The notes under the pieces were generated by a model. It saw only the letters and a list, made by a program, of their open reading frames with translations, had not been told where the DNA came from and did no database searches. Below are positions 1,503 to 44,119 of a DNA stretch of 64,000 nt, one piece after another. Made by a program: the position numbers and the translations under genes. The stretch's first letter is position 1. Each line of letters starts with the position of its first letter. Location: positions 72,829-136,828 of the IMG/VR virus record IMGVR_UViG_3300014039_000016; one strand, given 5' to 3'. This DNA is from a virus.

Positions 1503-1529
1503 AGAAAACGAGAACTAATTGTTCTCGTT
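1496..1529 (-). terminator. rho-independent terminator
   Basis: AACGAGAAC-taatt-GTTCTCGTT hairpin followed by a T-rich run on the minus strand. Confidence 0.45.
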
Positions 1530-1700
1530 CTTTATATTTTTTCTTATTTCATTGATACAGTTTTCACAAATTTCTGCGTTTCCCCAGGCAAACCAATTTG
1601 AATTATCTGTATCTTTGAATAATATTCTCTTTTTTATTTTATAACTTTCTAAATTATCAGGAATCATTTTAGAACATATTGCACATATATTTTTCATCAC
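1515..1700 (-). CDS. small Cys-rich (zinc-ribbon) hypothetical protein
   Basis: CxxC...CxxC pattern. Overlaps the start of the downstream helicase by 4 nt. Confidence 0.3.
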   Translation of the reverse strand: MMKNICAICSKMIPDNLESYKIKKRILFKDTDNSNWFAWGNAEICENCINEIRKNIKNENN

Positions 1701-2881
1701 TCGTTTCTCCTAATCACTAATTTTTCTGATGCTCTAGTCGCGGCTGTATATAGCCATCTTGCATGCTCTATCTTAATATTAGGAAAAGACTCCTCAATAA
1801 CTAAGACCTTATCCCATTCACTACCTTGTGCGCTATGACAAGTAATTGCATAAGCATAGGTGAAGTTTTTAGGAATTAAATCGCCATATATATACTTCAT
1901 TTTCCTAAGTTGATATTGAACGCGCCAATCTAAAAAAGGCTCTTCTTTAGTAAAAAAAGTTCTATCCATATCTAATAAAGGAAAAGTATCGCCGCCATCT
2001 GGTTTAAAATCGCCAATTATAATTGGAACTTCTCGTTCATCTGTTTGAATACGATTAGGAACTCTAATAAAGCTGGTGCATGGATTAATTAATGTACCTG
2101 TTGTACCATTAACAAGAGCATCACCATTTTCATTTGTATCGTCCCAATAATTTCGTTTACAAATAATTTTTTCTCCATTTTTTGGTAATCCTGAATAACC
2201 TAATAGACCTCTTACCTGGCTATTTATAGAATGTCGAGTTGCATTTGTTGCAACTAAAATTTGGTCCGCCCATGTTAGCATTCCAGTATTTAGCTCATTT
2301 TGTTTAACTATACAAACTTCATTACCTTTCATAAAAGAAATTGGTTCAAAATTACGAATTTTCATCGTAAGTCTAATAATCTCACTTTCTGCGGCTTGCC
2401 TCATAACCTCGTCTAAGAATACATCAGGATGCTTAAGGAGGTCATTTTCCTCGGTCTTGTCGATTTGAGGTAGCTGAAAAGGGTCTCCAAGGAAGATAAT
2501 AAAAATATGATGCGTCATAAGCAAATCTACCATCGACTTCGGAACCATAGACACTTCATCTACAACCACTATTGTATAGTCTAGCTCTTTTCTTATGCGT
2601 CTACCAAATCCGCCACTTGCCTTTGGATAATGCTCATATAATAAGTGATGAAGAGTACAAGCGCCAGGATTTCCTTTTTTTCTTAAGACTTCCGCGGCTT
2701 TACCCGTATAAGTAGCATAAGCTACCTTTTCTGGAGAAACATCTAACGCGCTAATAATAAACTTAACTAAGGTTGATTTTCCAGTTCCAGCATAGCCCGC
2801 AATAACTGCATATTTGTCTCCTTTTTTATGCTTATCTAAAACTACTTTTAATCCTTCCTCTTGCTTCCTCGTTAATATCAT
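1697..2881 (-). CDS. SF1 DNA helicase, Dda/RecD-like
   Basis: Walker A AGYAGTGKST, Walker B VVVDEVSMV, and a C-terminal UvrD_C_2-like region. Confidence 0.8.
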   Translation of the reverse strand: MILTRKQEEGLKVVLDKHKKGDKYAVIAGYAGTGKSTLVKFIISALDVSPEKVAYATYTGKAAEVLRKKGNPGACTLHHLLYEHYPKASGGFGRRIRKELDYTIVVVDEVSMVPKSMVDLLMTHHIFIIFLGDPFQLPQIDKTEENDLLKHPDVFLDEVMRQAAESEIIRLTMKIRNFEPISFMKGNEVCIVKQNELNTGMLTWADQILVATNATRHSINSQVRGLLGYSGLPKNGEKIICKRNYWDDTNENGDALVNGTTGTLINPCTSFIRVPNRIQTDEREVPIIIGDFKPDGGDTFPLLDMDRTFFTKEEPFLDWRVQYQLRKMKYIYGDLIPKNFTYAYAITCHSAQGSEWDKVLVIEESFPNIKIEHARWLYTAATRASEKLVIRRNE

Positions 2882-3690
2882 TATTCTTTCACCTCATAAA
2901 AAGTCATATCGCTATAATCAACCGTACCTGTATCTTCAATGCGGAAATCATCAATTTTTAATCTTAAATTATCTATAATATCATTATTAATAGCAAATTC
3001 TTTAGGATTTTTTAAAAATTCTTCATATTCTTCTTTAGATAAATCAATTTCTCCTTCATAATGTCCATATCTTAAAAACCCACTAACATAATCTGGAATG
3101 ATATTATCTATGAAAATTGTTTTATCTTCTTTCTTATGCCTCTCATTAGCCTTATCTATTGTCATTCTATTTAAAGAAGTAATTGCGCTAACACGACCAT
3201 CTTTGATTATTTTACTTAAATTTACAGGAGTGTAGTTACAAACATTTGCTGCTAAGTTAAGATGATACATATCATCACACCCTTCCATATTAGAATGGTC
3301 ATGACCATGAATATTTAAACACCAAGATAAACCCTTTATAGGTTCATGTGATAATAAAATCTTTTCAGCAATAAAAACAGGACCAGTATAAATTTCATTA
3401 AAATAATCTCGATATTTACCTAAACATGAATAATCATGGTTGCCGCAAATTAATATCCTATAATTTACATTTAGCTGTTCTAAATACTTTGGGTCTCCTA
3501 TATCTCCTAATAAAACTAAGGTATCATTCTTATGAACCAATTTATTGATTCTTTGAACCTGCTCTTCTGGAGTTATCCAATTCTTATCCATAAGTTTACA
3601 ATCACTATCATTGAAATGTGTATCAGATAAAATCCAAACAGAGCCAGTCATAGACCAATGCCTAAAAATATTATATAACATATTTATCAT
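2881..3690 (-). CDS. calcineurin-like metallophosphoesterase
   Basis: SDTHF...GDIGD...GNHD motifs. Confidence 0.8.
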   Translation of the reverse strand: MINMLYNIFRHWSMTGSVWILSDTHFNDSDCKLMDKNWITPEEQVQRINKLVHKNDTLVLLGDIGDPKYLEQLNVNYRILICGNHDYSCLGKYRDYFNEIYTGPVFIAEKILLSHEPIKGLSWCLNIHGHDHSNMEGCDDMYHLNLAANVCNYTPVNLSKIIKDGRVSAITSLNRMTIDKANERHKKEDKTIFIDNIIPDYVSGFLRYGHYEGEIDLSKEEYEEFLKNPKEFAINNDIIDNLRLKIDDFRIEDTGTVDYSDMTFYEVKE

Positions 3691-3693
3691 ATC

Positions 3694-4131
3694 TTACTCT
3701 CCTTTTTCATCCAATTCATCATATAACTCATTTCTAATGCGCATAAGAGTTTGACCTAATTTATTTTGTCCTACTCCTTTACATTTACCCCAATAAGTAT
3801 CTCCCCAAGTGTTACCTTCTACTATTGGTTCTAATCCAGTCTGTAAGAGTTTGATTTTAAGGTCTTCATTCTCTGTAAACTTCTGTTTACAAACATCATA
3901 CATTACCTGGTCTTTAATTTCTTCCCAATCATCTCTTAACTCAACTTTTCTGCCTAATCTTTTAGCCGCACCAGGTCTTAAACCAATAAACTTACGCCTC
4001 TCTTCATCTGTTTTACACTTAGCAGCCTGAAAAGCAGCTTCTGTTGAATTATATAATATGCCATTATAAAATATCGGAACTTCATAAAAATTACTTAAAA
4101 ATCCAAATTTACCATCAAATATATCTATCAT
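3694..4131 (-). CDS. NADAR (YbiA/DUF1768) domain protein
   Basis: FLSNF, EAAFQAAK and GDTYWG hallmark motifs over the full 145 aa. Confidence 0.85.
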   Translation of the reverse strand: MIDIFDGKFGFLSNFYEVPIFYNGILYNSTEAAFQAAKCKTDEERRKFIGLRPGAAKRLGRKVELRDDWEEIKDQVMYDVCKQKFTENEDLKIKLLQTGLEPIVEGNTWGDTYWGKCKGVGQNKLGQTLMRIRNELYDELDEKGE

Positions 4132-4169
4132 TTTAATATTATTCCTTTCTTATCTATATAAATATTATA

Positions 4170-4379
4170 TCATATTTTAAAATTAAAATCAATACAATAA
4201 TACTTTTTCTTTTCTATTTTTTTCTTTATACATTCCTTACATTTATTTTTTACTATTGGAGCAATAGAAGTACAAATATCCATTTCTGAATAATTGTACC
4301 CCTCTAACCAAAATAATCTATTACAATAAAAGCATCTCTTTGGAATAAAAGCAAATTTATCATAATGTGTTAAAGTCAT
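4170..4379 (-). CDS. small Cys-rich hypothetical protein
   Basis: CFYCN...CKEC pattern. Its 3' end overlaps a promoter motif, so the exact extent is uncertain. Confidence 0.3.
   Translation of the reverse strand: MTLTHYDKFAFIPKRCFYCNRLFWLEGYNYSEMDICTSIAPIVKNKCKECIKKKIEKKKYYCIDFNFKI
4174..4202 (-). promoter_or_regulatory. sigma-70-type promoter (conserved phage motif)
   Basis: attatatcata-N-aatcaa. Upstream of the NADAR gene. Confidence 0.6.
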
Positions 4380-4380
4380 T

Positions 4381-6276
4381 TTAGAACCCCCATGCTGTTA
4401 CAAAAGAAGCTTCTTTTATATCAATAATTTCATAATCAACCATAATTAACTGCGGATTTACCTCATAATTCCACTCATTAGAATTACATTTGCAAACTGC
4501 ATTAATTATATAATCATTACCATTATTAAAAGTATCAATTTCTTCTTCTGTACCCCCAAATTGTATAATATCAGCAACTGAATTAGTATATTTTAAAGTA
4601 TTTGATTTCATCACTTTAAAAGTATCTTTATTAACTTTAATATTCTTTATATATACAAGCGGTCTTTCAAAATCTTTACCTAGATAATCATTCATATTAG
4701 CCATTTCTAATATTTTCTGTCCTTCATTTTCAGAAGTCATATTCTTAGCATCCCATATATAATCAACATAATAAATAGGGTCTTCATTCATATCTTTAAG
4801 AATAGAATCTGTATCGTTTACAAAACTTAGTATCGGTTCTCCAAAAACTTCAGCCCCATAATCTGGGTCTAAACTACCACAATCTAAACCTAAACCGAAA
4901 GCACCTTGATGACCTTCCGCGTATCGAGCTCCCGCGGCAATACAAATATCTTTAAAATTCATATCTTTACCATATCCGCGTGCAGACCCCTCATAAGTCA
5001 CATATTGATTTTCTTTATCAACTACTTTTGTTAAAATACATACAGGTCTTTGATACTTTGCCATGAACTTATTCGCTATTAACCCAGCTATATTCCTATC
5101 AACCTCGCCAGGTTCTAATAAGAATAACAAAACTTTATGGTCTAACATATGATTTTTTTCAATTAAGCCCTCTAAATGTTCAAGTCCACTATCTTGAGCT
5201 TTTGTTTGTCTATTCTTTACATTTGTGCATGTTCGTATAGCTTGGTCAACAACTCTTTCCATTTCTCCTTGCGCGTGACCTCTTTTAGTTGAAAGAACCC
5301 TTTCAAACGCTCTATATTCTAGCATTGATTGGAATAATAATTCTTTCTCTTCTTGTGTTCCACTTCTAACCATTGCATTAACAAAAGGAGCAATAAAGAA
5401 AGCCGCGCCCATTGGAGTAATTTGTAAACCATGCTCTGAAGATGGCTTATAATCAGATTTATTTAAAGAAAAAGAATTTTTCTTTGCCATTTCATATATA
5501 AAAGGATTTTTAATATTTTCCTCTTTAAAACCTTCAAAGATGAGGTATTTCGTCTCAAGCGAGAGAATACTCATCATATCCGCCATGTTTCCAAGTGCAA
5601 CGAGGTCTAAGTAATTATTAGCAAAGTCTGTATCCTTTAATTTATCTAAAAAACGACAAAACTGCCATGTAACACCAACTCCAGAAAGTTCTTTATTAGG
5701 ATATGGAGTTAATTGATTATTAATAATAACTGTATTATGATACATTGCGGGATTAGATACTTCGTGATGGTCTAATATTAAAACTTCTGTATTATGATTA
5801 TCTAACTCTATATGAAAATTAATATCATTACTTCCTGCATCCGGCAATATAACTAAATCATATTTTTCTGCTTCTTCACAACAATCTGAAAGTCCATGCT
5901 GCTTTCCATTATGAAGAAAATATGATACATTATTTATAACAAAAGAAGGAAAAGAAGCATATAAATAATTTAATAAAAGCGCGCTTGAAGTATATCCATC
6001 ACAATCTGCATCAACTATTATTAATACTTTATGATTTTGCATAATATGTTTAATTAACATTGCCGCACCACGCTCCATTAAATCTAATCCAAATGCTTCT
6101 GGCGGATTGACGCATTCTTCTGTTGGGTTTATATATTCATATATATCTTCTTTTGAAATTCCTCTATTCAAAATAACTTGAAGTTCCGCAGAATTTGTTT
6201 TTACTGGATTATTATATAATTGAATGTGCATTATTTTACCCCACAAACAGCTATCTTTTTTGAGCATTGTGGACAA
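4381..6276 (-). CDS. DHH-family phosphoesterase, RecJ-like ssDNA exonuclease
   Basis: IVDADCDGYTSS (DHH motif II) and ILDHHEV (DHH motif). Confidence 0.75.
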   Translation of the reverse strand: MSTMLKKDSCLWGKIMHIQLYNNPVKTNSAELQVILNRGISKEDIYEYINPTEECVNPPEAFGLDLMERGAAMLIKHIMQNHKVLIIVDADCDGYTSSALLLNYLYASFPSFVINNVSYFLHNGKQHGLSDCCEEAEKYDLVILPDAGSNDINFHIELDNHNTEVLILDHHEVSNPAMYHNTVIINNQLTPYPNKELSGVGVTWQFCRFLDKLKDTDFANNYLDLVALGNMADMMSILSLETKYLIFEGFKEENIKNPFIYEMAKKNSFSLNKSDYKPSSEHGLQITPMGAAFFIAPFVNAMVRSGTQEEKELLFQSMLEYRAFERVLSTKRGHAQGEMERVVDQAIRTCTNVKNRQTKAQDSGLEHLEGLIEKNHMLDHKVLLFLLEPGEVDRNIAGLIANKFMAKYQRPVCILTKVVDKENQYVTYEGSARGYGKDMNFKDICIAAGARYAEGHQGAFGLGLDCGSLDPDYGAEVFGEPILSFVNDTDSILKDMNEDPIYYVDYIWDAKNMTSENEGQKILEMANMNDYLGKDFERPLVYIKNIKVNKDTFKVMKSNTLKYTNSVADIIQFGGTEEEIDTFNNGNDYIINAVCKCNSNEWNYEVNPQLIMVDYEIIDIKEASFVTAWGF

Positions 6277-6437
6277 ATAACATAGGTACTTTTACTTGCC
6301 GCAATTAAAAGAAAATCATCATCTCTTCTTGGTGGTGTATAACTTTCTTTAACATCTTCTGCTTCAAAACTAAATTTACATCCACATTCAGGACATTTTC
6401 TTATTTTTCTTGTGCCTTTTTCAATAATTTGTATCAT
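6231..6437 (-). CDS. small zinc-ribbon hypothetical protein
   Basis: CPECGC...CPQCSKK. Overlaps the start of the RecJ-like gene. Confidence 0.3.
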   Translation of the reverse strand: MIQIIEKGTRKIRKCPECGCKFSFEAEDVKESYTPPRRDDDFLLIAASKSTYVICPQCSKKIAVCGVK

Positions 6438-6448
6438 TTTTACTCCTC

Positions 6449-7570
6449 CTAATATAGATTTATTCTTTTCTTAAATAATTCCATAAAAACATCTGGACCT
6501 TTATCAATAGGACTATCTTTATAATCTAAATAATCCCATTTATCAAATATAAAACTAATTTTAACTAAATTACCATATTTATGATAAATATTAGTTAAAT
6601 TTCTAGTTAATTTTATAAACTCATCATCACCCTTTTTTTGGAACTGCTTATCCAAACAAATAATAATTTCTTTAACTCCTAGATTAATAAGAATCCAAGC
6701 TTGATATTGAATAAAAGCACTTCCGCAAACTGCAACTGAGATATCATTATCTTTACCAAAATAACTTGCATATAGGAGAGGTGACTTCTCCCCTTCAAAA
6801 ACAAAAACTTTTTCCGCAGCTCTTATATTATCTTTACTATTGTTTATATTATATAAATTAAATGAAAGTGGATGATTATATAAAACGCCATTTATTTTTG
6901 CGGGTCTATATTTTCCAAAGATTTCATTTTCTTTTATTAATGTTCTTTCTCGTATTCCTATTAGTCTATTGTCAATATCTCTATGCGGAATCACAATACT
7001 CGTATTAATTGGATTATATCGAATACCCGCATTTATCATTACTTCTTCTGTAATTCCTTCTTTTATCCAGGGCATTATAATAGGTTGAGGTAAATTTTTT
7101 AAAATATCATCTTTATATTGTTTCAATTTCACAATTTGAGTATTAATATTAATATCTTTAACTCTATCATAATTATTTAATATTTTCCAATCTTCGTGTG
7201 ACTGATAGTTACTATCATAAACATTTTGATTAGGAGAAAAACCAAAATATTGAGCAACATAATCAATAGCTTCCGGAAGCTGCCATTGAGAATCTTCTTT
7301 TTCTAAATGTGGTTCTTCTCTTGATTTTACTTTTCTTACTAACTCATAAATGTCAAAAGTCTCTCCACAATCTGTATAACATCTAAATAATTTAGTATTA
7401 TCATAATAGTATAATTTTTTACTATTTCCATTATGACAAATAGTTCGACATTTTAGTAAACTACCTTCTCGAATTGGTTCTCCGCCCATTTCATTAACTA
7501 AAGATTCAATTTGCTCAATAGTCAAACTGTTTTTTATTTCATCTTTATTATAACTATATAATTCTGGCAT
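6449..7570 (-). CDS. DNA primase (DnaG-like zinc-binding domain plus TOPRIM)
   Basis: CHNGNS...CYTDCGE zinc-finger motif and an FVFEGEKSPL TOPRIM glutamate region. Confidence 0.65.
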   Translation of the reverse strand: MPELYSYNKDEIKNSLTIEQIESLVNEMGGEPIREGSLLKCRTICHNGNSKKLYYYDNTKLFRCYTDCGETFDIYELVRKVKSREEPHLEKEDSQWQLPEAIDYVAQYFGFSPNQNVYDSNYQSHEDWKILNNYDRVKDININTQIVKLKQYKDDILKNLPQPIIMPWIKEGITEEVMINAGIRYNPINTSIVIPHRDIDNRLIGIRERTLIKENEIFGKYRPAKINGVLYNHPLSFNLYNINNSKDNIRAAEKVFVFEGEKSPLLYASYFGKDNDISVAVCGSAFIQYQAWILINLGVKEIIICLDKQFQKKGDDEFIKLTRNLTNIYHKYGNLVKISFIFDKWDYLDYKDSPIDKGPDVFMELFKKRINLY

Positions 7571-7572
7571 AT

Positions 7573-7842
7573 TTAAAATTCACTCTCGTCTAAAATCTTA
7601 ATTTTTAAATTTTCTATATCTTGTAACTCATAACTATAATCTGTAACAAACATAGGTTCAATGCGGCAAGTGCCTTTATCGGATTTACACCACATAAGAA
7701 TATTTTTCCATCTACCGCGTCTATTTTTATAAACAGATATCTTGGTATCTGGGACATCAAAATCTCCGCGTTTAATTACTGATTCTAGAGCTTCAATATC
7801 TTCTTTTGATGCTTGTAACATAATCATACCTACATCAATTTT
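7573..7842 (-). CDS. replicative DNA helicase (DnaB-like), exon 2 (C-terminal part)
   Basis: DVGMIML (the DADLIMF equivalent) and VYKNRRGRW (the KQRNGP equivalent), in frame with exon 1 if splicing joins 9028 to 7842. The boundary is inferred, not proven. Confidence 0.55.
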   Translation of the reverse strand, partial: KIDVGMIMLQASKEDIEALESVIKRGDFDVPDTKISVYKNRRGRWKNILMWCKSDKGTCRIEPMFVTDYSYELQDIENLKIKILDESEF

Positions 7843-8100
7843 CCTTTTTACCTTTATTTTCATAAAGGAGTAGACTATATCTTTACCATGGCTTTCGCTT
7901 TAGGTCCCTGTACTTCCATTTTAAAATAAATAAAATGTACTTCGCGCAACCGAATAGTCGTTGAACCTTCCTCTATTCGAGGCTCGGCTGCTGATTGCCC
8001 AATCTTTCTAATTTTCAAACATTCACACTTGATTTTATTTCATATCTATGTTGTAGTTTAGAAAGCTCTAAGGGTTTTCCAGCAATTCTCAGGGTGATAA

Positions 8101-8949
8101 TCACTTAGCATTTCTACTAAGGACGACTGTTTCCAAATTTTTATAAATTAAATATTTTCTTTCTAAATGAACTAATGGACAACTATCATATAATTTTTTC
8201 ATTATAAAGTATGGTTTTTGTATACCTCCACATCGAATGTAAAAAGTATTATTTTGAACATTGTTTTTTTGTTCTAATGGATTATCCAATTTTAATACTT
8301 CTTTTATCCATTCAAGAGTTTCTTTAGTTCCAACAAAACTTATACCAAATTCATTATTATTTCCTAAAAAAATAGAACCATCTCCATCAAAGTAACCTAA
8401 AATATAAGGTAGAAAAAATTCTTTTTCTATTTTTGGTGGCTCTAAAATTAAACTTTTTCTTGGAACAATTCCTTTATTTATTAAATCAGAAACCATTTCA
8501 TTACTATTAAAAATAATTTTACTCATAGGAGTGTTATTTGAAAAGCCTTCATTTTGAATATGGTCAACAATTTTTACATCACTATTCATAAATTCTTTAA
8601 GCTTTTCTAAATGTTTTTTATCTTTTCTGCTAATATTTACACCACAAAAATTTCCTGCATTGCAATCTGTTCTTCTTTGATACACATATCCATCTGCAGC
8701 AATAAACCCTAGCCAATAAGCCTTTTCTTCGGTATCAATATTTTGAAATTTTCGATAATCAGCTTTATATTTATGATTATCGTTTCTATAAGTTATTTGA
8801 TTTTCTTTTAACACTCTTGAAATTACATTTTTTGAAACTTGATATTTGGCTCCAATATTAACCATACTTTGTTTTTGATTTATATATAAATTAATAATGT
8901 TCTTCTGTTGTTCATCTGTAAAATTAATTTTTCTCATAAATACCTCCAA
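8101..8949 (-). CDS. LAGLIDADG homing endonuclease (double-motif), intron-encoded
   Basis: YWLGFIAADGYV and ILGYFDGDGSI motifs with an N-terminal HTH. Confidence 0.85.
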   Translation of the reverse strand: MEVFMRKINFTDEQQKNIINLYINQKQSMVNIGAKYQVSKNVISRVLKENQITYRNDNHKYKADYRKFQNIDTEEKAYWLGFIAADGYVYQRRTDCNAGNFCGVNISRKDKKHLEKLKEFMNSDVKIVDHIQNEGFSNNTPMSKIIFNSNEMVSDLINKGIVPRKSLILEPPKIEKEFFLPYILGYFDGDGSIFLGNNNEFGISFVGTKETLEWIKEVLKLDNPLEQKNNVQNNTFYIRCGGIQKPYFIMKKLYDSCPLVHLERKYLIYKNLETVVLSRNAK

Positions 8950-8954
8950 TTAGA

Positions 8955-8970
8955 TGTGTGTGTGTGTGTG
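8955..8970. repeat. (TG)8 dinucleotide microsatellite inside the helicase intron, in the loop of an inverted repeat
   Basis: tgtgtgtgtgtgtgtg, flanked by ATTAGATGT (8949-8957) and ACATCTAAT (8981-8989). Confidence 0.8.
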
Positions 8971-9027
8971 TATTATTCCTACATCTAATATGAAAAATAT
9001 TTAAGCTATATTATAAAAATTTGTCCA

Positions 9028-10293
9028 ATCTGCAATAGATTTTGCTCCACGCAATAAGTTTTGGTCATATTCTTTTGCATCTCGATAATCTCCATTAAGC
9101 TGTGTTGCGGACATAATAAAAATACCATACTGATTACATAAATCCTTTAATCTAATTGAAATCATAAAAAGAATATTATCTTCTCTTAAGCGCACTCCAC
9201 CGCTTCTTTTTGTTATCTCTTCAAGTATCTTCATCGAGGTATGTAGATAATCTAAAAAGCAGTACTTCGCCTCATGCTCCCTAATATTTCTTTTAATTGT
9301 ATTTTCTATATCTTGTAAAGAAAAGTCTGGAAGATATTCAAAATAAATTTTACTTTGTTTTAAAAGCTGTGCTGCTTTTTGAACTCTTTCCCATTCTCCT
9401 TTTAAATACTTACCATCTAATAAATGTTCTTCATTAACTCCTGATAAAAAAGCAATCATCATAGTCTGAATTTCATCAAGAGGTTGTTCTGTAGCTATAT
9501 ATATAGTAGGTTCTGATTTTCCTGTACTAATCCATTTATTCTCATGTAAATCATACATTTGAGAGCATCCGATATAGCAAGCATCCGCAATCATAGAACG
9601 AGTTTTACCAACTCCTGTTGCGGCAGACCTTAAATAAAATTTCTTTAATCTTGCTCCTCTTACAACCGTATTTACATATTTTCCAAAAAGAGGATATCCT
9701 AACTCCGGATTGGCTTTTAATGATTCTAGAAGTTCACTGACGCCCTCTCCTACCTGAATTCCGCCATCTGCATCGTCATCAACATACTTCATTCTAATTT
9801 GTAAAATTTTGTCATCTATAATATTTGCAATCTGTTCGAGGGATGTATTATCTAGCCAATCCTCTTGCTTTTGTTTCTTTTTTATATCTAAGACATTATC
9901 TGGGTCATACAAATCGGTTAAATCCATACCAGTAATAGTATTAAGTTGTTTTAATAATGTCATTTTCTTCATTCTATTATAATAATAATCAAAAGTTGAT
10001 ATATTAGATTTTTCCGCGCAAGTAAGGATATATTTTGCACCATCATTAGCTTTATAAATTGCTAATTTTTTTGGTCTTTGATTCAAATAATCTTCAATAG
10101 TTTCTATTGTTATATTTTTTGCTCCTAATTGATGTAAATTATAAATACTTCCAAAAACAATTTTTTGAAAATCATTTGCAAAATCTTCTTCTAAAAAGAA
10201 ATATTTATCTGTCGCATCTAATAAATTAGGATTATTATATATATTTCCTATAACTTGTACTAAACAAGCTATGTCACAATAATTACTTTTCAT
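9028..10293 (-). CDS. replicative DNA helicase (DnaB-like), exon 1
   Basis: RecA-fold motifs GVGKTRSMIADACYIG (Walker A) and ...SATQLNGDYRDAK. As drawn in the track, the ORF reads through into the intron to a stop at 9001. Confidence 0.7.
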
Positions 10294-23845: not shown

Positions 23846-24406
23846 TTATTCTCCTTTTACTTCTTTATATTTTAATTGAATATCTTCAATAATGGTATCA
23901 AGAGAAACTGGAGTATTGTTATGACTATCCATTCCAACATGATACATTGTAGGAATATTATTATAAAAATTCTCTTTCTGATGAGTATGACCATACAAAT
24001 TAATCACCTGTCTCTTCAGCGGAAGGTCGTTATCTTCATTTGCAACTATTGTTGGATAATGGCTTAAATAAAAATTATAACCTCGCAATTTTATTGTAGT
24101 TGCAAACCCATCAATAAGAACATTCGGACATTCAGCATAAAGCCTCTGTCTTGTAGCAGTATCGTGATTTCCAAAGAATAAATGAATTTCTCCCTTTAAT
24201 TGCTTTAAACACTTAATGCCTACATTATTATCTCCCAACATAACATCTCCAAGATGATAAACGACATCATCTGGCTGAACAACAGAATTCCAATTTTTAA
24301 TAATTGCGGCATTCATTTCTTCTATTGTACCAAAACCGCGTTCTTTAAAAATAAATTCTTTATTATGTCCAAAGTGAGAATCACTCGTGAAATATATTTT
24401 TCCCAT
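23846..24406 (-). CDS. calcineurin-like metallophosphoesterase (candidate 2',3'-phosphatase partner of the adjacent kinase)
   Basis: SDSHFGH...GDVMLGD...GNHD motifs. Starts 4 nt after the upstream kinase ORF ends. Confidence 0.7.
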   Translation of the reverse strand: MGKIYFTSDSHFGHNKEFIFKERGFGTIEEMNAAIIKNWNSVVQPDDVVYHLGDVMLGDNNVGIKCLKQLKGEIHLFFGNHDTATRQRLYAECPNVLIDGFATTIKLRGYNFYLSHYPTIVANEDNDLPLKRQVINLYGHTHQKENFYNNIPTMYHVGMDSHNNTPVSLDTIIEDIQLKYKEVKGE

Positions 24407-24409
24407 ATA

Positions 24410-25210
24410 TTACCTCCTTATCTTTCTTCTATGTATTTCATATTTATCTTTTAATTCTATGTTAGTAATCTCTCCGCAATCTGTTGTTATTGTAGAAATA
24501 GGATAAATATTATATATATCTGTATAAGGGTAGTTATCATGTACGGGGTCTGAAAATGTAGACCTCATTCTAGTAATAACTTCTTCAGGCACATAAGCTC
24601 TTGTTCCTTTTCTTAAACTATTCCCATAAAGTGCAACTTCTTCACTGACACTTACAAAAAGTGGAACTACATTAACATCTTTTAAGAAGTCTTTTCCAAT
24701 AGAGTTAATTAACTTCATTCTTGAACCTTTATTAAGATGAGTCGCATCTGCAAAACAATAATTGTTAAAAGCTATCTGATATTTAATCTGATTAACGAAT
24801 AATTGAAAAACTTCTTTTTCTTTTGAGAAATACTCTTCATCTTCTGAAACTATACTAAAACGAATTAAATCTCTACTAGCAACATGTTTTTCATAGTTAA
24901 TCTTATTAAGTTTGCAGAACATAGATAAGAAACTTGACTTTCTTGAACCTGGACATCCGCACATTAAGAACAAATATTTTTCATTAGGCTTTATCTCTAT
25001 ATCGCCGATAATTTCACCATCTTTATCTCCTTTTATAAAATATGGATATCCTTTTTCTTCATTACACTCATTTGAAAATAATGAAAATGTATAAATACCT
25101 GGCTTATAATAGTGACCATCTCCACGATAACAGCTATTATATTTAGGACAATATTCACTTCCACATCTTGTTATATCATTATCAAAATAAGAAATTGCAT
25201 TATTATTCAT
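24410..25210 (-). CDS. P-loop kinase (polynucleotide-kinase-like)
   Basis: Walker A MCGCPGSRKSSF. Confidence 0.5.
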   Translation of the reverse strand: MNNNAISYFDNDITRCGSEYCPKYNSCYRGDGHYYKPGIYTFSLFSNECNEEKGYPYFIKGDKDGEIIGDIEIKPNEKYLFLMCGCPGSRKSSFLSMFCKLNKINYEKHVASRDLIRFSIVSEDEEYFSKEKEVFQLFVNQIKYQIAFNNYCFADATHLNKGSRMKLINSIGKDFLKDVNVVPLFVSVSEEVALYGNSLRKGTRAYVPEEVITRMRSTFSDPVHDNYPYTDIYNIYPISTITTDCGEITNIELKDKYEIHRRKIRR

Positions 25211-25515
25211 TATATTTTACCCTCTTTATTTAACTTAGCCTTAAATTCTCCGTAAGGAAGAATTCTGTTTCCTTCTTCATCAAAATTGCCTTCATTAAAT
25301 TCCAATAGAAAATCACTATAATCATACTTAGTCCACGGTTTACATTCTACATGATTATGCTCTTCTTTGCAATTAAGACACCATAATCGTTTTAAATGTC
25401 CGGCTTCTCTTTCCTGCCCTCTCTTGCGCGGAATGTCAAAACCTCTTTTCCCACATTTTGTACAATAAAATTCACTTGGGTCTGCTAATTGCGTTCTTCT
25501 TGCCATATATAACAC
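25210..25515 (-). CDS. hypothetical zinc-ribbon protein
   Basis: CTKCG...CLNC pattern. Confidence 0.35.
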   Translation of the reverse strand: MLYMARRTQLADPSEFYCTKCGKRGFDIPRKRGQEREAGHLKRLWCLNCKEEHNHVECKPWTKYDYSDFLLEFNEGNFDEEGNRILPYGEFKAKLNKEGKI

Positions 25516-25536
25516 TTCCTTTCTTTTATATATATA

Positions 25537-25565
25537 TTATAACATTTTTTTTAATAAAAATCAAA
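25537..25565 (-). promoter_or_regulatory. sigma-70-type promoter (variant -10 TGTTATAAT)
   Basis: attataacat...atcaaa. Confidence 0.5.
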
Positions 25566-25602
25566 AAAAATAAGGCGTACTACTAATACAGTAGTACGCC
25601 TT
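25560..25602 (-). terminator. rho-independent terminator after PhoH exon 2
   Basis: 13-bp stem AAGGCGTACTACT/AGTAGTACGCCTT followed by TTTTTTTT. Confidence 0.7.
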
Positions 25603-25606
25603 ATAA

Positions 25607-26029
25607 TTATAAATTTTCTGCAATTTTTGCAATTTTACTTCTATAAATATTTTTAAGAGTAACTTCACTATAAAAATTTTGTCCTCTAAATACTTTAGAA
25701 ACTCTGCGGAGACCATTATGCTCACCCGCATACATATCTAAATCAACTTGGGCATTATCATCTCCATCAAGAATTACTTGACAATCATCACCAACTCTTT
25801 GAAGAGCAAGTTTCATTAAGTCTGAATCCATATTTTGTGCTTCTGTGATATAAATAATAGAATTAGAACCTGAAGTATCATATCCTCTAATATCAGCTAA
25901 AGGTAAAAGAATAAGCTGTTCATGCAATATCATATCATTTACAGTATCCTCTCCAAGTTTTGCCTTTAGAAAGTTTCCGATTTGGCTATCTAAAAGCTTC
26001 TCCGTCCTAGTTCCAGGGTAAACAAATAA
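25607..26029 (-). CDS. PhoH-like ATPase, exon 2 (C-terminal part)
   Basis: YPGTRTEKL (the LPGDLKEK equivalent), ITEAQN (the LDEAQN equivalent) and VILDGDDNAQVDL (the VVTGDxTQIDL equivalent). The start boundary near 26029 follows a G on the intron side. Inferred. Confidence 0.6.
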   Translation of the reverse strand, partial: LFVYPGTRTEKLLDSQIGNFLKAKLGEDTVNDMILHEQLILLPLADIRGYDTSGSNSIIYITEAQNMDSDLMKLALQRVGDDCQVILDGDDNAQVDLDMYAGEHNGLRRVSKVFRGQNFYSEVTLKNIYRSKIAKIAENL

Positions 26030-27340
26030 CTTTATAATTTTCATTATAAACCTGACTATATCTTATTTTAAACTATTTTTTAAAGAACAATATTTATTAT
26101 ATTTTCTTTGTAAATGTCTTGGACAATTTTCATATAAAATATTTAAAATTTTTAAAACTTGTAATCGACCTCTCCATTGAGTGTGCCAAGCAGATGTAAA
26201 AAAATTTTTATTTGTTTTTTCATTATCTGCTAAAAGATTGATTAAGGTTTGGAAATCTTGAACCTCTGTTTCATGATACGCAGTATAGCTTAAAGTAACA
26301 TCAGTACTAAAATCTTTACTGTAGCTCAATCCTCCATCCCCATCGAATAGACCTAATGCATAAGCACCCCAATATTTTTTAGGAATCTTTTGATATGGAA
26401 TATGGTCTATCATATAAGTTTTATTAGGAATAATATTATATTTTGCTAAATCATTATAGATTTGTTCATCAGTAAATTCTACAGAGCAACAAGTACTATT
26501 TGGTCGAATATCATAAATAATTTTTCCGTCTAACGCTAAATCTTCTTGAAATTTTTCTAAAATTTCTTTATCTCTTTCTTGTAATTGTAACCTAATTCTA
26601 CCTGTAGTTCTATAATGGTCAACGCTTCCATCTGTGAATAAAAAACCTAGCCAATAAGCTTTTTCTGGTGAATCAATGACTGAAAAGTAATCGCTTTTAA
26701 TTCTACGATTAATTCGATTAGTATTTTTAATTTGTAAGCCAAGTTCTTTCAGGCGGTGCTTAGTTGTTTCTTCATCTAAGTTACAATAATTAGCAACCTC
26801 TTTCAAGAAAGCACCTTCATCAATCATTTTTTTAACTTCCATAATTTGCTCATTAGTTAATTGTTTTTTCTTTCTACCTCCTCTAATAGGAATTTGATTT
26901 TCTTCAAGCAACTTTGTAATTTGCCTTCTATTAAAAGAGGGATAATCTCTTAATAATTGAGCTATTGATTTACCTTGTTGGTATTCTTGTATAATATTTT
27001 TTGTTTCCATAAAGAAACCTCCTTGTAATATTTTTACTATTCATATAAATATTAAAAATAAAAGAGGTAACTTTTCCTGTTTTGTCCAAAATTTTTCAGT
27101 TTAAAATCCATGCACTTCGAGATATTAAAATCCCTACTCTACTAACTTCCATATAAAAAATATGTGTTTTCGATAGTCGATGAACCTTCCTCTATTCGAG
27201 GCTCGGCTGCTGATTGTCCAATCTTTCTAATTTTTAAACATTCACACTTAGTCGTATTTCATACTTATGTTGTAGTTTAGAAAGCTCTAAGGAGGTTCCA
27301 GCAGTTCACATGGTTTTACTTGAGCCTTACCCTATTTTTA
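26030..27340 (-). mobile_element. group I intron (putative) in the PhoH-like gene, carrying a LAGLIDADG homing-endonuclease ORF
   Basis: PhoH is split between its Walker A region and its LPGD...DEAQN region. Segment 27170-27300 is near-identical to 7960-8095 of the helicase intron. Boundaries are approximate. Confidence 0.55.
26063..27010 (-). CDS. LAGLIDADG homing endonuclease (double-motif), intron-encoded
   Basis: YWLGFLFTDGSV and ALGLFDGDGGL motifs. Confidence 0.85.
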   Translation of the reverse strand: METKNIIQEYQQGKSIAQLLRDYPSFNRRQITKLLEENQIPIRGGRKKKQLTNEQIMEVKKMIDEGAFLKEVANYCNLDEETTKHRLKELGLQIKNTNRINRRIKSDYFSVIDSPEKAYWLGFLFTDGSVDHYRTTGRIRLQLQERDKEILEKFQEDLALDGKIIYDIRPNSTCCSVEFTDEQIYNDLAKYNIIPNKTYMIDHIPYQKIPKKYWGAYALGLFDGDGGLSYSKDFSTDVTLSYTAYHETEVQDFQTLINLLADNEKTNKNFFTSAWHTQWRGRLQVLKILNILYENCPRHLQRKYNKYCSLKNSLK

Positions 27341-28208
27341 ACCCAAGCTTAGCCGCGCCTCTAGCTGCGACTGTATTACAAAAAATAATGATTTTTTCTT
27401 TTTTGCCAGTTTCTAATTGATTCATCATATAAGCGAAAGCAAGGTAAGATTTTCCACTTCCCGCAGGACCTCTTAAGACAATCATCTGGTCATGAACTAA
27501 AGAGTCTAATGCAAGTAGCTGATATGCGTCATTATTGTAAGGACTTATCTTACCAAAGAATTTAGAGTCAATCTTAGGATATATAACTTTTTTATAACCT
27601 TCTTCTGTCCATTTATATTTATCAACAATACAGCTATTATTAACTACAATCAAATATTCATTAGTTAATAGACCATATTTATTATTTTTAGAATTAACTT
27701 CACAAGAATAGAAATTTGCTAATTCTTCATCATCTAAGTTTATAATTTTATAGCCAGTATAATCATCTTCTTCAACATCTGGACTGACTGTACTTAAACC
27801 TGCGGCTACCGCAAGCATTTTGCATGCAACATCTCTTGTTATAAATAAAGTTTCATCATTTTCTTTTTGTAAACTAAGAGCTGCATTAATAATATCACTA
27901 TCATTATTTGTGGCATTTGCTCCAGTTTTAATAACTTTATATTGGCTACTTTTGTTATCTAATAAATGAAGTAATTTTCTAGCTTTATATTTAATTTCAT
28001 TATCTTTTGATGCAGAGGTTTTTATATTTTCTAATTCCACGAGTGTAACATCCGCGATATAGAAAAAATCTTCAAAAGCTTTTTCTTGTAGTTCTAATAA
28101 AGCACAAGTATCATAAAATTTATTCATCTTCGTCCTCCTCATATTCTTCCAAATCTTGAGAAGCTTGGAACCCAATAGCAACGCCATTTCCTCCACAATC
28201 TTCTTCAA
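27340..28208 (-). CDS. PhoH-like ATPase, exon 1 (PIN-like N-terminal region plus Walker A)
   Basis: VLRGPAGSGKSYLAFAYMMNQL matches the PhoH P-loop. As drawn in the track, the ORF ends at 27327 inside the intron. Confidence 0.6.
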
Positions 28209-28417
28209 TATCTTTTTTTACATTATATGTTTCTTTTGCAATTACAGTACATATATGTTGACTTAGCTGTTGTAAAATTGTAATTACGCAATCTACGATT
28301 GGAATAATCAAAAGAACAAACAGACTTCCTTTTATAAAATTTTTCATTAGAGAAGCCCTCCTGGTTTATTTTATATATAATATGAAAAAAGAAATAGAAA
28401 AATTATACATTTTTGAC

Positions 28418-28449
28418 CAAATAAAAGAAAGGTGCGGCATTGCCGCACC
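28418..28449 (-). terminator. rho-independent terminator after the RNA-ligase-like gene
   Basis: GGTGCGGCA/TGCCGCACC stem followed by TTTCTTTTATTT. Confidence 0.65.
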
Positions 28450-28452
28450 TAT

Positions 28453-39291: not shown

Positions 39292-40131
39292 TTACTCTCC
39301 TACATATATTAACTTGTCAATATATTCTCTACCTTCACCTTTAAACATTGGAATTTCCGTATCAATAGTCCAGCCTTTAATTCTGTCTCCATCTGAAATA
39401 GATTTAGGGTTCTGCATATCTTCACGAATACAGCAACTTCCGCATTTCTGATGTGTTGGAAAATCATTCCAATTAACACCTTTCTGCGTCATAAGCATAT
39501 CTTGGATATCACTACATGACTTATCCTGTAATTCTTTCTGAGAAAAATAAGCCTGACCTACCATCTGAATAGAATTACGAGAGGCATCCAGTTGCCGCCA
39601 ATAAATAAGATTAGTTACTTCTTCTTTTGGAATATTGAAACAACGAGCATCGAACATAGCGCCTTTTAGCATAGAGTGGACATGATTCATATGGATTATC
39701 TCTAAATTATCATCAACTACATTTCCTTCCTCATCTGAATTAGAAAGTATTTCCTTTTCAACATTCTTAGCAAAAGCCTTATTGAATGCCATCGTAGCCA
39801 TACTCGCGGCAATGCTACAAAGCTTTTCTACTCGATAGTCAAACCAGGCATCTGTTGTTAATGTCTGATAATCAACCAAGATTAAAGTAATTTCATCTGA
39901 TTGTGTATATCCTAACACACAACCCTGGATATTCTGACACAAATATTGAGTTGTCTGTTGCATTGTTTTAATTAGCACCTCGTCAAAAGGTCGCTTAAAA
40001 CCTCGCGTAAAGGTGTGAAATGCCTTGCCATCAATTCTAATAGCAACAGGCATCCTCTTTATTAACTTAGTATCTGGAACAGCTTCATAGAATGTTTTCA
40101 TGCGAGTTCCAAGTTCATCTCTAATACTCAT
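39292..40131 (-). CDS. Thg1-like protein (tRNA-His guanylyltransferase family, 3'-5' nucleotidyltransferase)
   Basis: VAIRIDGKAFHTF (the VRLDGRNFHRF equivalent) and YTQSDEITLIL (the catalytic QSDEYS equivalent). Confidence 0.85.
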   Translation of the reverse strand: MSIRDELGTRMKTFYEAVPDTKLIKRMPVAIRIDGKAFHTFTRGFKRPFDEVLIKTMQQTTQYLCQNIQGCVLGYTQSDEITLILVDYQTLTTDAWFDYRVEKLCSIAASMATMAFNKAFAKNVEKEILSNSDEEGNVVDDNLEIIHMNHVHSMLKGAMFDARCFNIPKEEVTNLIYWRQLDASRNSIQMVGQAYFSQKELQDKSCSDIQDMLMTQKGVNWNDFPTHQKCGSCCIREDMQNPKSISDGDRIKGWTIDTEIPMFKGEGREYIDKLIYVGE

Positions 40132-40144
40132 ACTTACTCCTTTA

Positions 40145-40570
40145 CTAAGAAATCATTGAACCAACAACTTTATTAGCAATCTTCATATCTGCTTTACCTT
40201 TTAAAGCTGCCATAATCTTACCTCTGTTACTCTTTACTAACTCCAATCCTGTTTTCTGAATAAAATTCTTAATATCTTCTTCATTATCCATAAGGCTTGG
40301 CGCGAATTCATTGATAATATCCAACTTAACCTTATACTCTTCAAGAGTCTCTACTCTATCAGCAGGACAAGTATCTATCATCTCCTGTACAGTTTTCTTC
40401 TCTTTAAGAATAACTGCATTAATCTGGTCTTCTGTAACATTATCTTTACACTTATTATCAATTCCAAATTTCTGAACTGCCTGAACAAGACTTGAAATAG
40501 TATTTTTTCTTTCCTTATCCTTGTTTTTCATCGCAGCAATCATTTCTTTTTGCAAAAAATCTAAAGTCAT
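40145..40570 (-). CDS. GatB/YqeY-domain protein
   Basis: LQKEMIAAMKNKDKERKNTISSLVQAV matches the YqeY family. Confidence 0.7.
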   Translation of the reverse strand: MTLDFLQKEMIAAMKNKDKERKNTISSLVQAVQKFGIDNKCKDNVTEDQINAVILKEKKTVQEMIDTCPADRVETLEEYKVKLDIINEFAPSLMDNEEDIKNFIQKTGLELVKSNRGKIMAALKGKADMKIANKVVGSMIS

Positions 40571-41767: not shown

Positions 41768-43099
41768 TTATTTCTTCTTTTTAGTTAAACATATTGCACA
41801 TAAAATCCAAAAAATACAGCATAAAGATACTACAACACATATAGTCCACCAGCCTAAAAGGCTTTCATCTCCAGTTTGTACGCTAACCGTCGAGATATCT
41901 GCGGCAATTTCTGGTGTCTTACTCGGCTTTATATCTTTAGACTCCGCAATTTCTTCATCTGCCTCTAACTCTGGTGCTTTTGTTTCTTTTGTCATTTCAG
42001 TAGAGCTAGTTGTAGTTTTCTGTACAGTAGTTGTTTCTAATTCTGTGGTTGTCTCTTCATTCTTAAAACTTTCCGTTTCATTTTGCTTAATTGTTTCTGT
42101 TGTTTGTTCAGAAGAACTCTCTGTTGTATTTTGTTCAGAAGATGATTCAACTGTTGTAGTTTCAGAATTTGATTTTGTAAAACCTCTAAAAGCTATTTTA
42201 TGAATTTCGCTACTATGCGTTAAAGTATTACAAATTACTGAGCCAATAAGGTTTCCTGCATTTATATTTACAGTAGCCATTGGCGCAAGAATAGTTCCTG
42301 AGAATATACAATTTTGATTAATATTTCCGCAATAAGCACCAAAATTCCAAAGAATATTGCCACTCCATGACTCCCAGCCTTCATTTTGTATTTTACTTTC
42401 AATATTTATATTTTCTTCATTATTAGTAATAACATTAATAACTACAATTTTATCTTTAGCTATTGATTTAATGTATTCTCCCTGGTCAATATCATGTGAT
42501 AAGTCTTCTGCATTAATATTAAAGACTATAATGTTATTATTCACAGGTGTAAATTTACCATTCCAATAATTATTTTTCATAATTTTTGAAGAGTTTACTT
42601 GACTATATAAATCATTCGCATAAACTGTTAAATCAGCAAAAAGCTTTTCAAAATCTAAAAATTCTCCATCGCTTTTTTGTACGACAGATAAAAGATTATT
42701 TGTAGTTCCAAAAACTTGATTATCTACGAACCACTGATTTCCACGCTTTTCTATATTATAAGTATCACTAGTAACTAATCTATTGGTTACTCCATTCTGA
42801 AAGACATATAATCCATTAATTAAATTTTGAATATAAGATGTATTGTATTCACCTGGAACTCGTGAATTTTCAATACTACAATAACTCCATAAGTTATGGA
42901 TTAAGACATTACCTTCTACATGCCCAATACCTTGTTTATATTCTTTCGTAACAACAGCATAATCAAGCGTAAAATCTTCTCCTGATGCTTTGGTTGTGTG
43001 TGGCAGTAGTATAAAAGTTGCTGTAATTATTAACATAATTGCTAATAAAAATGAGATTATTTTCTTGTTATTTTTCATTTCCTTCCCTCCATAAAACAA
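41768..43099 (-). CDS. cell-surface protein with signal peptide, Ser/Thr/Glu-rich linker and C-terminal membrane anchor
   Basis: N-terminal signal/TM, a TTVESSSEQNTTESSSEQTTE linker and a C-terminal hydrophobic segment followed by a KKKK tail. Confidence 0.4.
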   Translation of the reverse strand: MFYGGKEMKNNKKIISFLLAIMLIITATFILLPHTTKASGEDFTLDYAVVTKEYKQGIGHVEGNVLIHNLWSYCSIENSRVPGEYNTSYIQNLINGLYVFQNGVTNRLVTSDTYNIEKRGNQWFVDNQVFGTTNNLLSVVQKSDGEFLDFEKLFADLTVYANDLYSQVNSSKIMKNNYWNGKFTPVNNNIIVFNINAEDLSHDIDQGEYIKSIAKDKIVVINVITNNEENINIESKIQNEGWESWSGNILWNFGAYCGNINQNCIFSGTILAPMATVNINAGNLIGSVICNTLTHSSEIHKIAFRGFTKSNSETTTVESSSEQNTTESSSEQTTETIKQNETESFKNEETTTELETTTVQKTTTSSTEMTKETKAPELEADEEIAESKDIKPSKTPEIAADISTVSVQTGDESLLGWWTICVVVSLCCIFWILCAICLTKKKK

Positions 43100-43128: not shown

Positions 43129-44052
43129 TTAGTTCATTAATAAGATATAATAAAAATATCCTTCTGCGTCTTGCGCGATTCCTACTCCAATATAATTGTA
43201 ATTATTACTTAACATTAAAGCATTATGTGCTTTAGAATTTTTCCAGCCTTCAACCGCTTCCGCACAGCTAGAAAAATATCTTGCATAGTTTTCTCCAAAA
43301 TTACCAGATAGATTGTATAACTCAAAAATGCTACTTGCCGATTCAAAATTAGGTCTATAATGATGCATTGCGCCATCTGAAGTATATCCAATCATATTCC
43401 AATCTGAATAAGCTGATTCGGTAGCTCTATGTTCTGCGGCAAGTGATAATACATTATTATATTCTAAAGGATATAAGCTATTTGAAATACGATAATCATT
43501 AATTATTGATACAAGTTCTTGTATTTGATTATCATATTTCACAATATTATTCGCAGATATTTGTTTTAAGTCATTATCGGTTAGGATTTTTGGTTGTGGA
43601 ATTTCATTTGTATTACTATAATTAACTCCATTACAAATAATATTAGTTATAGTAGGTTGCGGAATTTCTGCTTGAGTCTCCTCCATCTCGGTAGAAGCTT
43701 CTATAACCTGAGTTTCCGCGTCAACATTTTTAGAATAAGTTTCTGTTTCTTCAATTTCTGTCTCTGTTTCTTCTTCTATTGTTGATTCTAATATAATATT
43801 TTCAACAGTTTCTTCTTCTATACTTCTATTTGTTTCGGTCTCGAAAATCATATTTCGTGCAGCCGCGATTTGTCCATTCTGCTGTATATCTACTATTGTG
43901 TTAGCACTTCTACCTTCCTTGAAAGCACAAATACCAGCGATTAAGAAGACTCCCGCAGTTAAAGAAACTGTTGAAATTTTTAATATCTTTCTATTCATTA
44001 ACAGTACCTCCTCTTTTGAAGAAGGACATACAAATGAAAAGTGAAGATGCAA
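43129..44052 (-). CDS. CAP/SCP (PR-1/YkwD-like) domain protein with N-terminal TM
   Basis: C-terminal ...GWKNSKAHNALMLSNNYNYIGVGIA matches the CAP domain. Confidence 0.55.
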   Translation of the reverse strand: MHLHFSFVCPSSKEEVLLMNRKILKISTVSLTAGVFLIAGICAFKEGRSANTIVDIQQNGQIAAARNMIFETETNRSIEEETVENIILESTIEEETETEIEETETYSKNVDAETQVIEASTEMEETQAEIPQPTITNIICNGVNYSNTNEIPQPKILTDNDLKQISANNIVKYDNQIQELVSIINDYRISNSLYPLEYNNVLSLAAEHRATESAYSDWNMIGYTSDGAMHHYRPNFESASSIFELYNLSGNFGENYARYFSSCAEAVEGWKNSKAHNALMLSNNYNYIGVGIAQDAEGYFYYILLMN

Positions 44053-44119
44053 CTGGCTAGCTTTTCAGCCCCTATAGCTTTGCGTCCTTACCTTTCGATA
44101 AGTTTGCCCATAAAAATAT

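Follow-up and report, generated by a model that had tools for sequence, protein, structure and literature searches.

A NADAR-domain gene of a human-gut phage lineage as a probable AdfN-type counter-defence factor

Introduction

What would a phage gain from a small NADAR-domain protein when no ADP-ribosyltransferase partner is seen beside it? This question is raised by a 64,000-nucleotide stretch of viral DNA (positions 72,829 to 136,828 of IMG/VR record IMGVR_UViG_3300014039_000016; hereafter the window, numbered from its first letter), in which a minus-strand open reading frame (ORF) encodes a 145-aa NADAR protein. Our analysis favors, with a probability of roughly 0.6, the reading that this gene is an orphan, antitoxin-like gene for an AdfN-type ADP-ribosyl-glycohydrolase, which would undo DarT1-type guanine modification of phage DNA.

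Johannesman et al. (2025) described phage NADARs, named AdfN, that take ADP-ribose off DNA and defeat DarTG1; their set includes AdfN-T4 (gp30.3) as well as the unrelated AdfN-Bas32 and AdfN-Bas60 (PMC11825919). AdfN-Bas32 alone neutralises DarT1, and it rescues RB69, T5 and Bas25 on DarTG1 hosts (PMC11825919). Every NADAR subtype assayed in vitro cleaves off guanine-linked ADP-ribose (PMC11125620), and the tested NADARs reverse the guanine modification made by DarT1 but not the thymine modification made by DarT2 (PMC11825919, PMC11125620).

Results

The window encodes a minimal NADAR protein with an intact active site

The 145-aa ORF contains all four NADAR motifs that a preliminary description of this DNA had named: FLSNF at residues 11-15, E-AA-FQA-A-K at residues 31-38, GDTYWG at residues 110-115 and N-K-LG-QT-LM-RI-R at residues 123-133. 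The profile comparison proposed in that description gave a strong HMMER match to Pfam NADAR PF08719 (DUF1768), which at 90.1 bits (E=2.4e-25; gathering cut-off 35.1 bits) is far above chance and covers profile positions 9-162 of 163. The protein was assigned to phrog_1017 in PHROGs (E=3.3e-42) and passed the cut-off of NCBIfam TIGR02464 marginally (75.7 vs. 73.7 bits). Membership of the DS-32 defence NADARs was ruled out, as the score against this anti-phage family (NF053876) was only 52.5 bits for a cut-off of 240. An AlphaFold2 model built from a 46-sequence alignment reached a predicted local distance difference test (pLDDT) of 95.6 and a predicted template-modelling score (pTM) of 0.89. 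When this model was submitted to Foldseek, the best fold match was Escherichia coli YbiA with a template-modelling (TM) score of 0.83, while the NADAR of Phytophthora nicotianae (PnNADAR) scored 0.76. The model displays the alpha+beta YbiA-like fold, with a helical core and two small beta sheets at its flanks, and the protein is a minimal YbiA-type core that lacks an N-terminal extension.

To locate the active site we combined a HMMER alignment to the PnNADAR structure 8BAU, an alignment of 46 homologues and a six-way alignment, and took the roles of ADP-ribose-contacting and catalytic residues in PnNADAR and in the E. coli C7 NADAR (EcC7) from Schuller et al. 2023 (PMC11543638). Nine positions (E31, K38, K57, G60, R61, W69, E105, D111 and W114) were invariant in the 46 homologues, and they map to residues that in PnNADAR and EcC7 make contacts to ADP-ribose or are indispensable to catalysis. 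The equivalents of E31, K38, K57 and E105 are listed in Table 1; R61 corresponds to PnR79, W69 to PnW89, D111 to PnD130 and W114 to PnW133. The catalytic Glu and Lys lie seven residues apart on the E-x2-FQ-x2-K helix, as E31 and K38. Missing catalytic residues had been named beforehand as a possible refutation; they are present in the sequence-based and in the structure-based alignments.

Two of these positions bear on the type of NADAR. K115 of EcC7, the counterpart of K57, is required in vivo to counter DarT1 and dispensable for catalysis (PMC11543638). AdfN-Bas32 shares the Lys at this position, which is replaced by Ala in E. coli YbiA and by Gln in T4 gp30.3, so that in this handful of sequences a Lys here appears to correlate with rescue from DarT1 without phage. 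As for E105, the passage of PMC11543638 that cites de Souza and Aravind gives Glu at the PnE125 position for the YbiA subfamily, an Asp two residues upstream for the BC4488/DarG1 type and His for the T4 type. E105 aligns with PnE125 and with the Glu of YbiA and AdfN-Bas32, so that the window protein can be assigned to the YbiA subfamily in its broad sense and is of neither the BC4488 (DarT1-associated) nor the T4 gp30.3 type.

AdfN-Bas32 is the nearest validated relative

NADAR homologues are widespread: a tblastn search found them in 476 phage records, and 6,253 were retrieved from a large protein database at E<=1e-10. To place the window protein among the characterised ones we located the NADAR gene of phage Bas32 (bas32_0066; QXV80247.1), of which Bas33 carries an identical copy. 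We infer that this gene encodes AdfN-Bas32 from the identical Bas32 and Bas33 copies, which agree with a statement made in PMC11825919. The two proteins share 47% identity over 137 aa (E=8e-41) and belong to phrog_1017. Both are minimal (about 145-149 aa), without N-terminal extension; they have in common the E/K/E catalytic set together with the Lys at the EcC7 K115 position, and both are encoded by orphan genes amid early or DNA-metabolism genes. They differ in their carriers and hosts: Bas32 is a T5-like siphovirus (Markadamsvirinae) of Gram-negative bacteria, whereas the window belongs to a ~150 kb gut phage of 30% guanine-plus-cytosine (GC) content with an SPbeta-like replication module, and the host phyla differ.

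The nearest homologues from cultured phages were the NADAR of SPbetaL3 (WIT27337.1; 59%) and a "YbiA-like protein" of PBS1 (52%). At 145 aa the SPbetaL3 protein equals that of the window in length, and the SPbeta-type replication genes YorF and YorH are common to both phages, but the neighbour genes of the NADARs in SPbetaL3 and PBS1 are other than those in the window. In SPbetaL3 (OQ921343.1) the NADAR gene (3992-4429) is found in an anti-defence neighbourhood, upstream of the annotated anti-Gabija gene Gad1 (7793-8414) at a distance of ~3.4 kb.

By pairwise identity the window protein groups with a Methanobrevibacter-labelled NADAR (60%), the SPbetaL3 NADAR and AdfN-Bas32, while E. coli YbiA (38%) and T4 gp30.3 (35% over 57 aa) are more distant. 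Such a grouping fits the published clustering of AdfN-Bas32 with archaeal NADARs (PMC11825919).

The remaining characterised NADARs are less similar. E. coli K-12 YbiA (2B3W) and PnNADAR share only 35-39% identity with the window protein; YbiA, besides its Ala at the K57 position, fails to protect against DarT1 in cells, and it is chromosomal, lies in a LexA-regulated operon and has a riboflavin-related activity. DarG1 (BC4488-type; E. coli C7 and G. lovleyi 8BAT) is of the same superfamily, conserves the catalytic Glu and Lys and presumably employs the same chemistry; the window NADAR, however, has no adjoining DarT1 ADP-ribosyltransferase gene and lacks the basic beta1-beta2-alpha1 extension found N-terminal to the YbiA core. 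AdfN-T4 (Pfam PF08010) is likewise an orphan NADAR of a phage, retains the catalytic E/K pair and has a demonstrated anti-DarTG1 role, but its identity to the window protein is only 35% over 57 aa; it belongs to PHROG 652, has His for the hallmark Glu and Gln for K57, and depends on a T-even co-factor to be fully active.

The NADAR gene heads an apparent operon behind a member of a phage promoter family

A sigma-70/SigA-type promoter with an extended −10 box precedes the NADAR gene (Table 1). It is the top-scoring promoter-like site in the region 2500-6500, and the upstream 69-aa ORF ends within it (stop codon 4172-4170). The preliminary description had rightly announced a promoter here, yet placed it at 4174-4202, about 10 nt away from the site that we found on the minus strand. 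Generic promoter-like sites showed no excess over shuffles in this AT-rich DNA across the region, and only the stricter extended −10 motif was enriched: TTGAnn-N14-TGnTATAAT occurs 18 times on the minus (coding) strand and not once on the plus strand, with 0.035 copies expected in shuffles. Moreover, the 18 copies share a conserved spacer and post −10 sequence (TTGAnn-tttataaaaaWttaTGaTATAAT-atttatata). Because the strict motif is strand-specific, lies far above shuffles and has shared flanks, the copies can be regarded as a genuine phage promoter family, predicted to be read by the primary sigma factor of the host. Several of them precede tRNA clusters and replication genes.

The gene had been called stand-alone, a claim that our data contradict. 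The next gene starts 4 nt past the NADAR stop codon, a scan of the minus strand of 2500-6500 showed no terminator-like site, and the next promoter copy downstream is at 1503-1475; these three observations outline a four-gene unit led by NADAR. The NADAR, a calcineurin-like metallophosphoesterase, a superfamily 1 (SF1) helicase and a 61-aa ORF therefore form one apparent operon, in which the 269-aa metallophosphoesterase is probably co-transcribed with NADAR and the phosphoesterase and helicase genes overlap, at the stop of the one and the start of the other. Neither the 61-aa nor the 69-aa Cys-rich ORF had a Pfam, PHROG or PADLOC match.

We also considered that NADAR and the metallophosphoesterase could make a conserved two-gene module. 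Their adjacency is kept in close variants of the phage lineage but not in SPbeta-like phages, T4 or more distant contigs. The genes beside NADAR in SPbetaL3 and T4 are not homologous to the 269-aa gene, the SPbeta homologues of that gene lie ~108 kb from NADAR, and contigs with 60-64%-identical NADARs have other neighbours. We rejected a general module, and there is no evidence of a functional link between the 269-aa metallophosphoesterase and NADAR.

A 96%-identical variant contig from a gut metagenome (L007; ERZ943825) keeps the same 29-nt promoter. In the region L007:5022-6179, which we compared with 3694-4192 of the window, a 216-aa N6/N4 DNA methyltransferase gene stands between promoter and NADAR, at the place where the window has a 38-nt spacer. 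Orphan DNA methyltransferases are a gene type usually read as anti-restriction, and the juxtaposition of promoter, methyltransferase and NADAR is compatible with an anti-defence role.

No ADP-ribosyltransferase partner of NADAR is seen in the window

The window matches ~150 kb contigs from human-gut metagenomes, such as ERZ808287 NODE_10 (151,093 bp) and one from a Hadza sample (147,775 bp), while megablast against known phages gave no match for it. The exact NADAR protein is present on at least 23 metagenome contigs (up to 151 kb), and its neighbour genes are alike on the contigs shown or grouped as similar. Nearly all ORFs of at least 90 aa lie on one strand. The phage carries the SPbeta-like replication genes YorF, YorH, DnaB, DNA polymerase III alpha and NrdD, as well as topoisomerase II, primase, a RecJ-like exonuclease, lysis genes and 22 tRNAs. 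A location in an early/replication block had been claimed for the NADAR gene; the replication block stands, with the RecJ-like exonuclease, primase, DnaB and SF1 helicase alongside NADAR, while early timing, of the block as of the NADAR promoter, is plausible only. Bacterial relatives of the protein were of no help in naming a host, because the matches, at 41-53% identity, are spread across Lachnospiraceae, Oscillospiraceae, Selenomonadaceae and Proteobacteria, among other groups, and are thus uninformative in this respect.

Among the Pfam listings of the window proteins we saw no ADP-ribosyltransferase (ART), DarT, Macro or NAD-salvage genes. There was no PADLOC match to DarG, nor were KptA/Tpt1, TIR or SLOG genes found in the window; ribA/ribD or other riboflavin genes were not seen there either. 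As no ADP-ribosyltransferase partner was seen in the window, the NADAR gene is an orphan antitoxin-like gene.

Other features of the window

The coordinates of the NADAR locus and of other features are collected in Table 1.

Table 1. Coordinates, within the 64,000-nucleotide window, of the NADAR locus and of further features (−, minus strand).
Feature	Position	Strand	Remarks
NADAR-domain gene	3694..4131	−	ATG start, 145 aa
Ribosome-binding site GAAAGGA of the NADAR gene	4143..4149	−	11 nt 5' of the ATG; read from sequence
Codon of E31 (catalytic Glu)	4039..4041	−	PnNADAR E43, EcC7 E88, AdfN-T4 E36
Codon of K38 (phosphate-coordinating catalytic Lys)	4018..4020	−	PnK50, EcC7 K95, AdfN-T4 K43
Codon of K57	3961..3963	−	PnK75, EcC7 K115
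Codon of E105 (YbiA-subfamily hallmark Glu, distal-ribose coordination)	3817..3819	−	PnE125
Sigma-70/SigA-type promoter, extended −10	4164..4192	−	TTGATT 4192-4187, 17-nt spacer, TG 4172-4171, TATAAT 4169-4164
Cys-rich (CxxC...CxxC) 69-aa Zn-ribbon ORF	4170-4379	−	Just upstream of the NADAR promoter region
Calcineurin-like metallophosphoesterase, 269 aa	2881..3690	−	phrog_547 E=5e-23; Metallophos_2 E=1e-4, under Pfam cut-off
SF1 (RecD/PIF1-like) helicase, 394 aa	1697..2881	−	AAA_30, AAA_19 and UvrD_C_2 matches
Cys-rich (CxxC...CxxC) 61-aa ORF	1515..1700	−	Last gene ahead of the promoter copy 1503-1475
Promoter family, −35 starts	62995, 62127, 61881, 60935, 59552, 47412, 35739, 33752, 33323	−	
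Promoter family, −35 starts (continued)	25564, 23306, 18555, 16507, 16428, 13930, 13495, 4192, 1503	−	
Homing-endonuclease-affected regions	7573-10293, 25607-28208, 4381-6276	−	
Vault-shoulder/Band_7 pair	30723-33242 and 33783-35375	−	
RNA-repair-type genes	23846-29712, 39292-40570, 44162-45661, 63167-63457	−	
22 tRNA genes	45.7-63.6 kb		

Homing endonucleases mark three genes of the lineage. DnaB is polymorphic: it is an uninterrupted 511-aa protein in the related contig L008, while here 430 aa are followed by a LAGLIDADG ORF (8101-8949) and a 96-aa ORF. The minus-strand PhoH gene of the window is split by another LAGLIDADG ORF. RecJ is intact here (631 aa) and split by a GIY-YIG ORF into 383 and 240 aa in contigs L007, L010 and L011. 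Group I introns were considered at the interrupted genes and discarded, with no Rfam match at the gathering threshold.

A set of RNA-repair-type genes comprises an RNA ligase (PF09414), an AAA_33 (polynucleotide kinase (PNK)-like) kinase adjoining a Metallophos_2 phosphatase, PhoH/PIN, a Thg1-like enzyme, YqeY, a DUF2828/TROVE-like protein and a 96-aa cREC_REC cyclic-phosphate-processing domain (E=3e-21). An 839-aa protein with the major-vault-protein shoulder domain PF11978, which had no PHROGs match, adjoins a 530-aa Band_7/SPFH protein, a pair that is unusual for a phage. Lastly, a cyclic di-GMP (c-di-GMP)-I riboswitch aptamer was detected at 44045-44118 on the minus strand (Rfam RF01051; 61.6 bits vs. 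a gathering score of 35), directly upstream of a CAP-domain gene (43129-44052) and a pAdhesive_15 gene (41768-43099); judging by this match, it is a predicted phage-borne c-di-GMP-responsive element.

Discussion

The window gene is a phage-encoded orphan with an intact catalytic site and clear homology to a validated AdfN, which are two of the marks of the AdfN class. The proposal that it serves as an anti-defence factor is supported by its homology to AdfN-Bas32, but "DarTG-type", as the suggested defences were first called, was too broad: since the tested NADARs are inactive on thymine-linked ADP-ribose, the target should be of the DarTG1 type. We propose that host RNA polymerase would transcribe NADAR from its strong sigma-70/SigA-type promoter, along with the replication genes. 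The protein would then bind the ADP-ribose moiety via K38, R61, W69, D111 and W114 and use E31 and E105 to hydrolyse the N-glycosidic bond between ADP-ribose and the nucleobase, with guanine N2, the substrate in all tested NADARs, as the probable substrate. In this way, adducts left by a DarT1-type or other guanine-directed ADP-ribosyltransferase of the host would be cleared off replicating phage single-stranded DNA (ssDNA), so that replication could continue. The location in the replication block supports this proposal, as it suits a DNA-repairing activity that would be needed there, and we also count for it the pairing of NADAR with an orphan DNA methyltransferase in the variant contig.

Several points weigh against this reading. 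A DarTG1 system or other guanine-directed ART in the host is presumed. The window protein is acidic, with an isoelectric point (pI) of 5.2, as is its Methanobrevibacter-labelled homologue (5.2), whereas the values for AdfN-Bas32 (7.9), the SPbetaL3 NADAR, YbiA and T4 gp30.3 lie in the neutral to basic range (7.9-9.4). It is also devoid of the basic N-terminal extension proposed for ssDNA binding in DarT1-linked NADARs, although AdfN-Bas32 lacks it as well. Furthermore, activity in vitro is no guide to protection in vivo, given that neither YbiA nor the T4 NADAR, acting alone, relieves cells of DarT1 toxicity (PMC11125620). The TIGR02464 model whose cut-off the protein passed, even if marginally, is named "riboflavin intermediates N-glycosidase", and the large RNA-repair and tRNA repertoire of the phage could point to RNA or a small molecule as the substrate.

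Of the rival explanations, the one with most weight is that the protein removes ADP-ribose which RNA-directed host ART toxins attach to RNA bases (guanosine or cytidine of mRNA, tRNA or rRNA), and that it acts alongside the phage RNA-repair and tRNA set instead of protecting DNA. YbiA, T4 and other NADARs do remove ADP-ribose from guanosine in RNA (PMC11833690), YbiA-type NADARs remove it from cytidine (PMC12945103), and the window indeed encodes an RNA ligase, a PNK-like kinase and phosphatase, a Thg1-like enzyme, a cREC domain and the tRNAs. We nevertheless consider this explanation unlikely: the NADAR gene belongs to a DNA-replication operon and is separated by tens of kb from the genes for RNA repair, its nearest validated relative counters a DNA-modifying toxin, and a phage defence that ADP-ribosylates RNA bases and is reversed by a NADAR is not documented in the NADAR literature cited here.

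A related and distinctly unlikely scenario is that low-GC gut bacteria possess a so far undescribed defence that acts by ADP-ribosylation and whose product is the target, for instance ADP-ribose on tRNA or mRNA bases or a soluble N-glycosidic ADP-ribose signal. NADAR would then cooperate with the unusually rich RNA-repair set, and possibly with the translationally coupled metallophosphoesterase, which could dispose of the freed ADP-ribose.

We regard as quite improbable that the protein degrades soluble ADP-ribose derivatives in general, be they immune signals or toxins with an N-glycosidic ADP-ribose linkage or by-products of RNA repair. Iyer et al. (2022) proposed such a role for most phage NADARs on a contextual argument (PMC9503650), and two features of our locus agree with it, namely the cREC domain protein, another predicted processor of ADP-ribose or cyclic-phosphate derivatives, and the small, acidic NADAR without an obvious nucleic-acid-binding extension. 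The window, however, contains none of the KptA/Tpt1, TIR, SLOG, Macro or NAD-salvage genes looked for, and every NADAR tested acts on base-linked ADP-ribose in nucleic acids, while a soluble signal as substrate has not been demonstrated. Finally, a housekeeping YbiA-type N-glycosidase that destroys reactive riboflavin-pathway intermediates and has no role in conflict, in spite of the TIGR02464 match, the YbiA-subfamily hallmark Glu and YbiA as the closest fold match, is highly improbable for a gene found in hundreds of phages, which would have no obvious need of such a metabolic function, with no riboflavin genes in the window and an identity to YbiA of only 38%, as opposed to 47-60% for the group of Bas32, SPbeta and archaeal-type NADARs.

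That a phage NADAR can act as an anti-DarTG1 factor is already published under the name AdfN, and hence the anti-defence reading preferred here is not new. Concept, chemistry and phage distribution are in print (PMC9503650, PMC11543638, PMC11125620, PMC11825919), and our analysis opens no new question in this regard. What it provides is one more well-conserved member of the AdfN class, its function predicted, carried by an abundant lineage of ~150 kb phages from the human gut, a member that would extend the validated Bas32 or "archaeal-type" NADAR clade to phages of Gram-positive bacteria, such as relatives of SPbeta and PBS1.
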